Source: Desulfobacterales bacterium (lineage in GTDB: Bacteria; Desulfobacterota; Desulfobacteria; Desulfobacterales; UBA5852). Taken from it: a DNA stretch of 64,000 nucleotides. The notes beneath the pieces are model-generated. The model saw only the letters and a list, made by a program, of their open reading frames with translations. It had not been told where the DNA came from and ran no database searches. Within the stretch, counting starts at the first letter, position 1. Each line of letters opens with the position of its first letter. A program made the translations under genes and the position numbers. Below are positions 28,859 through 54,940 of this stretch, piece by piece. Location: contig CAXXVS010000002.1 of NCBI GenBank assembly GCA_963674755.2, forward strand, positions 1 through 64,000. Reading direction: 5' to 3'.

Positions 28859-29105
28859 TCGGTTTTATGGTTTTAGGGATTTAAAGTGTTAGGGGAAGCG
28901 CTTTTAAGTGCTCGTGTAGCAATTGATGTCGTTTTGAAGTGATTAAGTGGTTAAGGAACAGCGGCTGCTGAGGGGCTTAGGTTTTAAGGGCAACCCTTAA
29001 AACTCTAAACCCTTAAATCCCTGTATCGGTATTCAGCATCCCGCAGGGCAACAGAACTTTTCCGATGTTGACCTAACCATGTAACCACTTAAAACTTAGT
29101 CACTT
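28859..29105. repeat. Nested degenerate 9/8/7-mer periodic inverted repeats
   Basis: GGTTTTATG-GTTTTAGGG-ATTTAAAG; GATTAAGT-GGTTAAGG; perfect hairpin GTTTTAAGGG-CAA-CCCTTAAAAC at 28981-29003; reverse arm TAACCACTTAAAACTTAGTCACTT. Confidence 0.85.
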
Positions 29106-29123
29106 TTTTTATAAACAGGAAGT

Positions 29124-29855
29124 ATGTTGGAAACCCCTATCGTTCAGCCGCCGCCCCGCGGGAATAAATCGCCCATCCCCCCGCGGGTCGTGCTGGTGGC
29201 TACCGGACCGGATCTCAAACGGTTGCGGCAGGGATTGTCCAGCCCCGACGACCGGGGTGAGCGCCTCTATCTGAGCCGCATCTACAGGGCGCTGGAAACG
29301 CCGGCGCCCTGGGCGCTGGTGGGGCCCTTCATGGGCGCGCCCCAGGCCGCCATGCTCATGGAGACCCTTTCCGTCTGGGGGGTGGCGCAATTTCTTTTCC
29401 TGGGATGGTGCGGCGCCATCGCCCCCCATGTGCGTACCGGCGATATCGTGCTGCCCACCGGGGCCTTTATCGACGAGGGCACCTCACCGGGTTATGATGC
29501 CCAAGCCGATAAGGTGTTACTGCCGTCGGAGGATTTCCACCAGGTGATCAAACGCGCCCTGGCGGCGCGCGGTCTGGGGTTTCACGAAGGCCTCGTGTGG
29601 TCCACGGATGCTGTTTTCCGGGAGACCCCGTCCAAACTGGGCGCCTATCAACGCCGGGGGGGCCTGGCGGTGGAAATGGAGATTTCGGCCTGCCTCACGG
29701 TGGCGCGTCGGCGCGGGGTCTCCTTCGCCGCCGTCCTGGTGGTGTCCGATGAACTGTCCTCACTGAACTGGCGGCCGGGATTCCGCGACCCGCGCTTCAA
29801 GGAAGCCTGCCGCGCCGTAAGTCAAACCGTGGAAGACCTATGCCGGACATCCTGA
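29124..29855 (+). CDS. Nucleoside phosphorylase (PNP/UDP family)
   Basis: [34 protein letters not shown]. Confidence 0.9.
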
Positions 29856-31864
29856 CACCTGATATCAAAGCGCGTGCCCGTTTGCTGGCCGAGGAGCTGA
29901 CCCGGCACAACTACCGCTATCATGTCCTGGACGATCCTGAGATCGCTGACAGCGAGTATGATCGCCTCATGCATGAGCTGCAGGATCTGGAAGCACGCTG
30001 GCCGGAGTTGGTAACCCCCGACTCCCCCACCCATCGGATCGGGGCGCCGCCCTTGGCCAAATTTAACCCGGTGCCCCATACGGTGCCCATGCTGAGCCTG
30101 GACAACGCCTTCAGCGACGACGATGTTCGGGAGTTCGAGGCTCGTATCCGCCGTCTGTTGAAAACGGAAGACCCCTTCACTTACGTCGTTGAGCCTAAGA
30201 TGGACGGCGTTGCCGTGGAACTGATCTACCGCGACGGAATCCTGACCCGGGCCGCCACGCGGGGCGACGGCTTTACCGGGGAAGATATCACGGCCAACGT
30301 GCGCACGATTCAGGCGTTGCCCCTGCGGCTGCAGGATCGGAAAGTCGCCGCCGTACCGTCGCTTCTCGAAGTGCGCGGTGAGATTTTCATCCACCACGAG
30401 GCTTTCCAGCAGCTCAACCGGGAACGTATGGCGGCACAGCTGCCGCCTTTCGCCAACCCACGCAACGCTGCGGCCGGTTCGCTGCGGCAGCTCGATTCCA
30501 AGATCACGGCCCGGCGGCCGTTGAACATCTTTTGTTACGGGGTCGGCACGCTGCAGGGCGGGCAACCAACCTCCCAGAGTGCGCTGCTGGCGTTGTTCCA
30601 ATCCCTGGGACTGCCGGTAAACCCCCTGATTCAGACTTGCGCCACCATCGACGCGGTGTTGGATGTCTACCGCTCCCTGGAGGCCCGCCGCGAAGATTTG
30701 CCCTACGATATCGACGGCATGGTGATCAAGGTAAACGAAGTGGCGTTGCAGGAGCGCCTGGGGGTGACTTCCCGCAGCCCGCGCTGGGCCATTGCCTACA
30801 AATTCAAGGCAGTTCAGGCCACCACCCGGCTGGAGACTATCGAAGTCCAGGTCGGTCGCACGGGGGTTCTCACACCGGTGGCGCATCTGGAACCCGTTGC
30901 GGTGGGGGGGGTGGTGGTCAGTCGGGCCACCCTGCACAACCAGGACGAAATCGACCGCAAGGACGTGCGCATCGGCGACTGGGTACTGGTCCAGCGGGCC
31001 GGGGATGTCATACCGGAAGTGGTCATGTCCATCGTCTCCAGGCGCAGCGGCGGGGAGCAGCGCTTTTGCATGCCCGACGCCTGTCCGTCCTGCGGGGCTC
31101 CGGTGGAACGGATGGCCGACGAGGTCGCCCTGCGCTGTGTCAACGCGGACTGCCCGGCCCAGATCAAAGAACGGATCCGGCATTTCGCTTCCAAAAACGC
31201 CTTCGATATCGACGGGCTGGGCACCAAGCTAGTGGACCAACTGGTCTCAGTGGATCTGGTGCGGTCCTTTCCGGATCTGTTTGCATTGGATGCCGTGACC
31301 GTGGCGGGCCTGGAGCGCATGGCCGAAAAGTCAGCTGCCAACCTGATCGACGCCCTGCAGACCAGCAAGACGATCGCTTTTGATCGCTTCATCTTCGCCC
31401 TCGGCATCCGGCACGTGGGCGAGCACGTGGCGCGCATCCTTGCCCAGCGCTTTCCCGATCTGGCGGCGCTGCAGGCAGCTTCGTCCGATGAGCTGGAAGC
31501 CATCGACGGTATCGGCCCCATCGTGGCCGCCAGCGTGGCGACTTTTTTCCGCCATGCCGAGAATCGCGACATGCTGCAGCGGCTGCTGAACGCCGGTGTG
31601 CAGATTGAGACGGTAAGCGCACCGCCGGATAAGGACCTGGCAGGGCTGACCTTTGTGCTGACCGGGTCCCTGGAAAGGATGCCCCGGTCTAAGGCCAAGC
31701 TGCAGATTGAAGCGTCCGGCGGCAAAGTGGCCGGTTCGGTCAGCCGCAAGACCGACTTTGTGGTGGCGGGCGCATCCCCCGGATCCAAACTGGCCAAGGC
31801 GCGTGAACTGGGGGTCGCGGTGATCGACGAACAGCGGCTGTGGGACATGTTGGAAAACGAATAA
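29840..31864 (+). CDS. ligA: NAD-dependent DNA ligase
   Basis: [23 protein letters not shown], zinc finger, HhH, BRCT. Confidence 0.99.
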
Positions 31865-31918
31865 GGTTTTAAGGAGTGCAACCCTAACTCCCCTAACCCC
31901 TTAACCCCTAAAACTTTA
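31862..31918. repeat. Short periodic inverted-repeat tract starting at the ligA stop codon
   Basis: TAAGGTTTTAAGG...CCCTAACTC-CCCTAACC-CCTTAACC-CCTAAAAC. Confidence 0.75.
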
Positions 31919-31944
31919 GCTGCCCAGCAGCTGAAGGAGTCGTT

Positions 31945-53926: not shown

Positions 53927-53934
53927 GGTGAAAG

Positions 53935-54245
53935 AAGTTTTAAGTGATTAGGTGGTTAGGTAAAAAGGGTTCAAGGGTCCAAGGGGTCGAGGGAACAAGG
54001 GCTCAGGGGAAAAGATCAGGCGATGCTTGATTCTGGTTGCCGGATATCGGATTCCGAATGCTTTTCACTCGACCCCTGGTATCCCCGGAACCTGCCGTTA
54101 GCATTTCACTTGAACCCGCTTACATGAATAACTCCTCAAGTTCTCAGCAAACCGGCCGATAACAAGAAATGGTTTCAGGTTTTGTGGGGTTGGGACTTTA
54201 GGGCTCTTAAACCCCTAAATCTTTAAATTTCTAAATCCTAAAAAT
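53935..54245. repeat. Composite tract with about five periodic repeat families
   Basis: TTTAAGT-GATTAGGT-GGTTAGGT; GGGTTCAA-GGGTCCAA-GGGGTCGA-GGGAACAA-GGGCTCAG; CTTGATT-CTGGTTG-CCGGATA-TCGGATT-CCGAATG; TTAAACCCCTAAATCTTTAAATTTCTAAAT. Confidence 0.88.
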
Positions 54246-54260
54246 TACCGGAACCGCCCC

Positions 54261-54722
54261 GTGAAAATCACCGCCGCAGCGCCCGTCCAACATCCCATCG
54301 CCCTCAACCCCCTGGCCGGATTCGTCTGCACCGGGGTGGCGGTCGTGATCGCCCTGCTGTGCGGCGCACCGGAGGGCATGCTCAAAACATGGGGTGTCGA
54401 CCTGTTGCTGGCCCTGAAGGTGGATACACCGACGGTCTGGCGCTTGGTGTTGGACTCACCCAACCTCTGGCATATGGGGATGTTTGCCGTGCTCACCACA
54501 GGGTTGCTGATTGCCGTTCCGGGCCGGTCCCGCTTGTGCGTCCACACGGCCGTGCTCCTGGGCGTCTTCCTGGAACTCGTCCAGATCGTCGTCCCCAGCC
54601 GCGAAGCCAGCCTGGGCGATATGCTCTTTAATCTGGCGGGGGTGAGTTTGGCGTTCTTTGCCTATACGGGGTTGAAGCGGTTAGGTAAAAAGGGTCCGAG
54701 GATCCAAGGGCTCAAGGACTAA
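54261..54722 (+). CDS. VanZ-family membrane protein, counter-oriented to the locus
   Basis: HMGMFAVL, ELVQIVVPSREASLGDMLFNLAG. Confidence 0.85.
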   Translation: MKITAAAPVQHPIALNPLAGFVCTGVAVVIALLCGAPEGMLKTWGVDLLLALKVDTPTVWRLVLDSPNLWHMGMFAVLTTGLLIAVPGRSRLCVHTAVLLGVFLELVQIVVPSREASLGDMLFNLAGVSLAFFAYTGLKRLGKKGPRIQGLKD

Positions 54723-54940
54723 CGGCGCAACCCGTTAGCCGAGGGTTTTTATCTTTATCGAAATCGATTGTAATTCCAAGCCATCCACCGCAAGGGCGGC
54801 GGAAACTTGAACGCTCAGCAACCATCCGCTTACGAGCTGCTTTTACGGGCTTACCTGCTCAACAGCTGTTTTCCCCTCTGCCCCTGCCGCCAGCATTCCA
54901 TCTGAACCCTTGGCCCCTTGAATCCCCGGACCCTGCCGTT
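54679..54940. repeat. 8-mer inverted-repeat unit homologous to 53954-54099
   Basis: GGTTAGGTAAAAAGGGTCCGA-GGATCCAA-GGGCTCAA ... TGAACCC-TTGGCCCC-TTGAATCC-CCGGACCC-TGCCGTT. Confidence 0.85.

Follow-up and report, generated by a model that had tools for sequence, protein, structure and literature searches.

The locus and its repeat arrays

The first 64,000 nucleotides of contig CAXXVS010000002.1 (C2 below) of a Desulfobacterales bacterium, referred to here as the window, are the start of one contig of a 6.7 Mb genome and contain, from 28.6 kb onwards, pnp-like, ligA, acyP, ftsY, and smc genes that lead into a polysaccharide export locus (wza, an ATPase gene (exeA), a DnaJ-like gene, wzc, a TPR gene, cpsB, the O-antigen ligase gene wzy, wecA, a vanZ-like gene, and a DUF218 gene), 3′ of which lies a glycosyltransferase block of lower GC content. 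The gaps between these genes carry tandem arrays of 7–9-nt units, many of them arranged as inverted pairs. These arrays probably represent (with a probability of a little under 0.6) inverted arms that belong to small cassettes with either a PF05635 (four-helix-bundle) gene or a GxxExxY gene, along with gene-less derivatives of these cassettes, and they are most likely selfish DNA that turns over rapidly between strains. The unit families are termed A, B, C (AGGRKYCR), D, E, F (CTGGATR), and G (CAYGAAG, the GxxExxY type); the genome of the window is termed G000, and G004 is a close relative that has the same locus with around 83–93% DNA identity.

Thirteen gaps had been named in an earlier, sequence-only reading of the window, and periodic units were found at every one of them (most gaps were scored, but the one at 52248, like some of the weak arms, was identified by eye). 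Over the whole genome, for which the gene calls came from a simple self-trained finder, tandem-periodic intergenic segments with periods of 7, 8, and 9 number 19, 18, and 36, compared with 1–3, 1–6, and 2 in two block shuffles, and a profile scan with nine unit families gave 122 intergenic arms, compared with 0 and 0 in two shuffles. One family had been misread: the supposed 9-mer GGTTTTAAG has a period of 8, and the true 9-mer family, CAYGAAGRN (GxxExxY type), which is present at 44.9 kb, had been overlooked.

With a looser threshold, there are 33 arms in 5.7 kb of junction DNA at 28.5–56 kb and 1 arm in 2.3 kb of junction DNA at 9–28.7 kb, the expectation being 0.014 per kb. The arrays do not end at 56 kb: families A, B, C, D, and F resume at 86–100 kb of C2, after the low-GC block, and there is a second hot spot at 810–875 kb of contig C1, in another polysaccharide locus. 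The two polysaccharide loci account for 73 of the 122 arms (29 in C2 0–100 kb and 44 in C1 800–900 kb). The idea that insertion is into envelope loci thus holds as an enrichment but not as a rule, as 55 of the 129 scored arms lie outside such loci. The resumed arrays of C2:86000-100000 sit among amino-acid transport and metabolic genes. Besides the intact GxxExxY cassette, the region C1:810000-875000, in which 9-mer families dominate, contains an IS21-type element and a nucleotidyltransferase-HepT pair.

In 38 junctions of the two loci, the same-family pairs face inward, with the G/T- or purine-rich arm coming first, in 43 cases out of 43, and the number of non-crossing pairs is 26 versus 14.9 (maximum 23) after shuffling the order. 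Inverted pairing, which had been taken as usual, is therefore better than chance, but several arms (at 31.9, 49.75, 52.25, and 54.85 kb) have no partner. The 43:0 polarity is also what would be expected from the extension of both host 3′ ends if the arms were made afresh by a telomerase-like, reiterative synthesis of G-rich repeats on the two 3′ ends of a break, with an Avd-like protein helping a reverse transcriptase (RT) in trans. The four-helix-bundle protein does match the Avd model weakly, but its 30 bits fall well short of the cut-off of 80; moreover, the two long RT genes that the genome has are located outside the window, and both match the group II maturase domain. In addition, different copies have unit-by-unit variants and loops in common and, therefore, the arms are inherited as blocks. 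Synthesis of the arms afresh is, on this evidence, very improbable.

A diversity-generating retroelement was rejected on the basis of the same Avd score and of the absence of an RT among the 51 open reading frames (ORFs) of the window that were scanned. No integrase, which integron gene cassettes would require in addition to attC sites, is present among these 51 ORFs, which agrees with the previous view that the window contains neither a recombinase nor an RT. An assembly artefact was ruled out because the junctions are common to an independent genome and to contigs from other runs. A CRISPR array was ruled out too, as had been anticipated: the units run head to tail without spacers, the runs form inverted pairs, and there is no Rfam CRISPR match. 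Indeed, the Rfam models detect only rRNA and tRNA over the window, and no Rfam family covers the arrays.

Two protein families inside the arms

The genome has a single intact PF05635 gene, which is flanked by CTGGATR arms, and a single intact GxxExxY gene, which is flanked by CAYGAAG arms. In a larger set of 135 four-helix-bundle genes (from 151 loci, 16 of which were dropped because of a short match or flank), inverted arms bracket 118. Among the relatives, where one of 31 four-helix-bundle loci and one of 29 GxxExxY loci were dropped, inverted arms bracket 26 of the 30 four-helix-bundle genes and 22 of the 28 GxxExxY genes, compared with 4 of 120 size-matched controls. The enrichment beside PF05635/TIGR02436 genes is therefore clear, and the proposal of small gene cassettes stands for these two families but not as a general system with varied cargo. 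The intact gene of G004 matches TIGR02436 with 129.6 bits, and its closest solved structure is 2GSC.

The type of arm goes with the type of protein. In the 114 cassettes that passed a re-run shuffle test, the similarity of the arms tracks the identity of the proteins (Mantel rho 0.40, null maximum 0.17), and an arm type is shared by 74% of the pairs with at least 70% protein identity and by 0% of those below 40%. On a quick tree, the C type requires 2 changes versus 23 when shuffled and forms a single clade of 31 loci, which includes records from Desulfobacterota, Nitrospirota, Ignavibacteriota, WOR-3, and Planctomycetota. Within one genome, the cassettes are mostly unlike one another (4 of 57 pairs are similar). 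Gene-bearing partners were found for the arms of family C (40 loci), F (3), B (1), G (4, all GxxExxY), and D (1, by eye). For A arms, a first, stricter pattern found nothing in metagenomes; a looser one gave 122 stretches, of which 80 were fetched, several being telomere-like, and of the 64 usable loci 6 have a four-helix-bundle gene. The association of every repeat type with a protein subfamily of its own suggests that a selfish element is likely. At C2:1894276-1894482 in G000, a GxxExxY gene is broken off after about 70 codons; it has other 9-mer-like arms and an E arm upstream.

Selection was evaluated for the C-type (GGGTCCAA-type) clade. Its ratio of nonsynonymous to synonymous substitution rates (dN/dS) is around 0.13, with a range of 0.08–0.21 over the 13 usable pairs (422 of 435 pairs were saturated), in a set made up of intact ORFs only, and 80 loci had been picked by their likeness to one C-type protein; both choices count against the selfish-cassette reading. 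Going by these values, the clade is under purifying selection. Its neighborhoods are another matter: the 29 loci are distributed over 26 different gene contexts on the upstream side and 23 on the downstream side. A protein that is conserved, that is found in ever new places, and that decays in those places would be the pattern of a selfish mobile gene.

The overall pattern resembles that of the repetitive extragenic palindromic (REP) sequences, REPINs, and RAYTs, in which a small gene for an HUH (Y1) nuclease is flanked by its own repeats, the REPs are single palindromes, and many gene-less inverted pairs exist. The likeness lies in a repeat family that is specific to a protein subfamily and in dispersed gene-less pairs; the differences are that the arms here are tandem 7–9-mers and that the enclosed genes are PF05635 or PF13366 rather than an HUH (Y1) nuclease. 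The genome has 13 Y1 matches, the flanks of which were not examined.

Filled, empty, and nested junctions

A comparison of 11 junctions between the window and G004 showed that 3 are homologous, 1 is half so, and 7 have changed content. Both filled and empty alleles, which it had been proposed to look for in alignments of orthologous gaps, exist. At exeA|dnaJ-like, the C arms of G004 surround an intact four-helix-bundle gene of 123 aa, whereas the arms in the window, of types B and A, are gene-less; the cleanest empty site is an operon junction of 8 nt in G000 that in the genome G032 holds an 824-nt GxxExxY cassette. At cpsB|wzy, the four-helix-bundle copies of the window and of G004 are broken in different ways; in a related contig, this junction is shorter, at 194 nt, and has B-type units. 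Smaller changes are found as well: of two close genomes, one has a 31-nt B arm before acyP that the other lacks, and the number of units changes by whole steps between the window and G004.

Proceeding along the window, the first unit (28859–29105, hyp84|pnp) is a nested, gene-less one, with an A 5′ arm (28861–28892), a B 5′ arm (28931–28958), a short inner A pair that extends to 29022, and a B 3′ arm (29072–29105); it is about 95% identical in G004, apart from gains or losses of 7 and 16 nt in its units. The next unit (31862–31925) is an A 3′ arm with a single 5′ unit, the latter starting at the stop codon of ligA; the content differs in G004. Between acyP and ftsY (32227–32322), a B pair surrounds an unpaired F 5′ arm, and the B 5′ arm has an extra 33 nt in G004. 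At 38025–38255, the profile scan detected 5′ arms of types B and D and, after them, a gene-less A unit with a loop homologous to the loops at 42.9 kb and at 89.0 and 94.5 kb of C2; an E pair replaces this A unit in G004. The convergent gap wza|exeA (40428–40682) contains a D pair around an E pair and is near-identical in G004, while exeA|dnaJ-like (42802–43045) contains a B pair around a gene-less A unit, again from the profile scan. E-type gene-less hairpins also occur at what seems to be the same gene junction in two genomes (L257 and L261), with different loops.

Downstream of wzc, the junction with the TPR gene (47408–47552) has an A pair where G004 has a D pair, and the junction of the TPR gene with cpsB (48810–48905) has an E pair where G004 has an A arm and a C pair. 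An unpaired D 5′ arm (49740–49790) is missing from G004. Next to it, C arms surround a deleted, frameshifted four-helix-bundle gene on the minus strand (49793–50092; profile match at 49956–50051), which bears out the remnant reported there before, and the reading frame of wzy terminates within an arm of this unit. An unpaired A arm at the stop codon of wecA (52248–52290) was read by eye and is below the threshold of the scan.

The vanZ-like gene (54261–54722, plus strand; Pfam match below cut-off) had been described as counter-oriented and bracketed by two homologous units. This is correct. The unit before it (53935–54245) consists of a B arm and a C scar, then a short A pair; the unit after it (54679–54940) is a C scar around unpaired D 3′ arms, and its outer arm, which abuts the stop codon of the DUF218 gene, is orthologous to an arm of a frameshifted four-helix-bundle cassette that neighbors DUF218 in G004. 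Both C units are taken as scars because both keep the module that abuts the start of the four-helix-bundle gene in G004. What found no support is the status of vanZ as cargo: no homologue was found with this query in 150 other genomes of the order, and the gene sits between two complete scars of four-helix-bundle cassettes that have the same orientation.

Nesting can be followed in detail at one junction, dnaJ-like|wzc, where an A hairpin (44826–45037), which has the stop codon of wzc inside its outer arm, is empty in G004 with a tiny loop, and where the window is 136 nt longer. The additional sequence (44865–45000) has inner CAYGAAG arms and is flanked by 44857–44864 and 45001–45008, which match at 7 of 8 positions and correspond to a single target in G004. 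In 19 copies with both ends, the match between the flanking octamers averages 6.2 of 8, versus 2.9 (maximum 4.2) in permutations. The family is non-coding, with 132–158 nt between CGG ends, and its copies include an 86% identical one on contig C3, 8 related termini in G000, and 16 matches in the genome G005. An element at C2:1236972-1238051 has the same ends, a perfect terminal inverted repeat (TIR) of 25 nt, and a frameshifted PF12762 transposase gene; the ends of the intact IS1595 of G005 differ from those of the insert. The polysaccharide locus of G004 also holds a copy that shares the left end of the C2:1236972-1238051 element. An 8-nt target duplication is the norm in the IS1595 family of insertion sequences (IS). 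This nesting event is thus explained, because the insert has the characteristics of an IS1595-type MITE (miniature inverted-repeat transposable element) with an 8-nt target duplication: to judge by these signs, a MITE with a GxxExxY-type hairpin inside was inserted here by ordinary transposition. Short TIRs shared with a PF12762 element, the 8-nt duplication, and many copies are what the insert has in common with other MITEs of this family; it differs from them in carrying the tandem-repeat hairpin, and the other elements of the window are without these signs. The claim that nesting records successive insertions is therefore supported in this one case, and this is the only case explained.

The gene-less units cannot all be scars of separate losses. 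Four gene-less A units share a loop (p 0.002–0.004), and seven gene-less units of the G type on C1 share a central palindrome, so that they were copied as units. The term "empty scars" is appropriate for the two C units at vanZ but too narrow for the rest, given these shared loops and given that one family is a dispersed MITE. The gene-less form dominates in G000, with 122 arms versus one intact gene per family (two in total).

This imbalance raises the question of whether the arrays are passive, slippage-prone hitch-hikers that are moved by ordinary MITEs, IS elements, and recombination, with the small proteins having nothing to do with mobility. The gains and losses of units would fit slippage, and the sole insertion with a known signature is indeed that of an IS1595-type MITE. 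However, the gene-bearing cassettes show no clear target duplication and, in the flanks read by eye, no common transposon end, and nearly all members of two unrelated protein families are bracketed with a single polarity (G exceeds C in the 5′ arm of 108 of 114 cassettes). An entirely passive origin is consequently improbable.

Placement, possible host function, and related repeats

The arrays have a strict placement. Of 73 cassettes, 56 lie between co-directional genes; in G000, out of 129 scored arms, 34 are of the 5′ type within 30 nt past a stop codon, 10 are of the 3′ type before a start codon, and 0 are of the 5′ type before a start codon, while divergent gaps are avoided (8 of 129 arms, p 1e-5). 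Such placement would be understandable if the arrays were host regulatory elements (RNA-processing, translation or termination signals, or sites for global regulators) that tune polysaccharide operons, with the small genes as regulators or passengers, and a role of this kind has been proposed, in the parts of the publications available, for related repeats (PMC2700814, PMC4679880, PMC4692102). Another point in its favor is that the junctions shared with G004 diverge little: 53 of 984 sites differ (5.4%), versus 171 of 1327 (12.9%) in other intergenic DNA and 13–28% at four-fold sites. This could mean a host function, but either recent exchange or constraint could produce it, and the junctions were chosen as homologous. 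Regulation is, on the other hand, hard to reconcile with the change of content at 7 of 11 junctions between close relatives, with the equal conservation of arms and loops (p 0.47), with the lack of a strand bias, and with two more distant members of the genus (G009 and G011), which have the same gene order without arrays at the wzc-region junctions examined by eye. A regulatory role is accordingly considered unlikely. A simpler role for the arms as suppliers of stop codons in three frames was rejected (29 of 114 versus 25.7 in shuffled sequences).

The possible host function just mentioned and the sampling of the C clade are not the only points that weigh against selfish cassettes. No arms were found that hold a gene in one genome and are themselves empty in a second one; the filled and empty alleles at exeA|dnaJ-like carry different arm families, and one GxxExxY cassette occupies the same site in four members of the genus. 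E-type arms had a gene partner, as judged with two profiles, in 0 of 30 loci. A direct repeat of at least 7 nt is present in 11 of 109 flanks of gene-bearing cassettes versus 5 in controls, with inconsistent lengths and offsets and mostly not abutting. Co-inheritance through linkage is enough to explain the match between arms and proteins. As regards the RNA, 9 of the 13 window units have a folding z of −2 or lower on at least one strand, and the longest predicted helix has at least 21 pairs in 10 of 13, but these 13 units show no folding preference for the transcribed strand. Nor is there a G-U bias on the sense strand, either in total (378 G:T versus 333 A:C, p 0.10) or by locus (56 versus 42 loci, p 0.19; for GxxExxY, 54 versus 64). 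Without a G-U bias or a strand preference in folding, selection on an RNA stem is unsupported.

If the arrays are nevertheless selfish cassettes, their spread may be pictured as follows. Cassettes would settle right behind stop codons, where the transcript is predicted to fold into a long stem. They would be tolerated because they lie outside reading frames and along the direction of transcription, the stem being looped out or cut by RNase III, by analogy with the intervening sequences (IVSs) of 23S rRNA. The gene rnc is present in the genome. Whole junctions would probably be swapped between strains via recombination in the flanking genes, which would explain their build-up in polysaccharide loci, as these are frequently exchanged; comEC is present in the genome as well. 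Empty hairpins are probably neutral landing sites and hence lead to nesting, and the encoded small protein would putatively act on its own type of arm during the spread to new sites. Cutting of the stems, should it occur, would mean that strains differ in the positions at which their polysaccharide operons are processed.

A more specific proposal, which is tentative and on the doubtful side, is that the four-helix-bundle protein (an Avd-like pentamer) and the GxxExxY protein (PD-(D/E)XK-like) are putative trans-acting factors of an undescribed, cross-phylum mobile element, in which each subfamily would recognize its own 7–9-nt arm and move cassettes and hairpins behind stop codons; under this proposal, three to five units per arm would match a five-subunit ring. 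If true, it would explain the excess of heptamer repeats in bacteria as well as the origin of the ORF-bearing IVSs of 23S rRNA. The main reading, for its part, ties two very large protein families of no known function, PF05635 and GxxExxY, to the unexplained 7–9-mer intergenic repeats that were reported separately from Xanthomonas, Geobacter, and Beggiatoaceae, as one element with a cognate arm–protein code. The locus is a good test bed for such ideas: within 26 kb, it combines six arm families with both filled and empty alleles and with one nested insertion that can be dated.

In Coxiella burnetii, the helix-45 IVS of 23S rRNA combines tandem heptamers with terminal inverted repeats and is cleaved by RNase III (PMC4990558). 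Like the cassettes, it has an S23p/four-helix-bundle ORF within terminal inverted repeats, a variable number of heptamers upstream of the ORF, a decaying ORF, and a patchy, horizontal distribution (PMC4990558). The window units differ in lying between protein genes, in being numerous in one genome, in having many arm families, and in being mostly gene-less and nested. Membership of the IVS class fails because of location, which is between protein genes and not in a 23S helix; the two 23S genes of the window align with the full length of the Rfam model (1–2925), across 3020 nt. The GGGAATC arrays of Xanthomonas and Nostoc are intergenic, have about four units, and form 70–75 convergent inverted pairs; as in the window, the G-rich strand lies past stop codons, the C-rich strand lies before start codons, and they are rare between divergent genes (PMC4692102). 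Unlike the window arrays, the junctions of which turn over, they are of a single repeat type in stable neighborhoods and were interpreted as G-quadruplexes; in the parts available, they are connected neither with a gene family nor with mobility (PMC4692102).

In Geobacter metallireducens, there are paired sites of tandem 7-, 8-, and 9-mers, in several classes, with three to five units on opposite strands, and these too have variable spacings, some overlap of classes, and adjoining IS elements; they differ in being interpreted as binding sites for a global regulator, and the available portions of the text plus 12 of the 19 supplements contain no link to four-helix-bundle or GxxExxY genes (PMC2700814). 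The TAACTGA heptamers of the Beggiatoaceae form runs just before start codons within operons; their patchy spread likewise suggests transfer by a mechanism that is not known, but they are nearly all unpaired and were interpreted as sites of translational control (PMC4679880). A literature search, in which subscription journals were poorly covered, gave no link of PF05635 or GxxExxY to tandem inverted arms outside rRNA, and the portion of the GxxExxY literature available was not about repeats. What appears to be known already, then, is the ORF-bearing 23S IVS and, for Xanthomonas and Geobacter, repeat pairs without a gene; what appears to be new is the link of intergenic arms to the two protein families.

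Several other features of the region are of interest. Further palindromic elements of about 120–140 nt, unrelated to the tandem arms, are present at 32395–32516 and 33850–34126, the first of which differs from G004 at 3 of 121 sites. At acyP|ftsY (32227–32516 in the window), a small HU-like gene was seen by eye in G001, G006, G010, G015, G020, G023, and G026 and is missing from the window, G004, G005, and G008. The ligA gene of G004 at this locus (C13 57250-59340) has an identity of 38–45% in three pieces, and its neighbors are 83–95% identical. The ATPase and DnaJ-like genes (40697–44811) are related to each other in their C-terminal regions, at about 37% in cross hits, and the scan gave no Pfam match for this part. 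Finally, the first 9466 nt of the window comprise two tandem rRNA operons with equal Rfam scores and with ORFs that recur at an offset of 5548 nt, a duplication that may be real or due to assembly.

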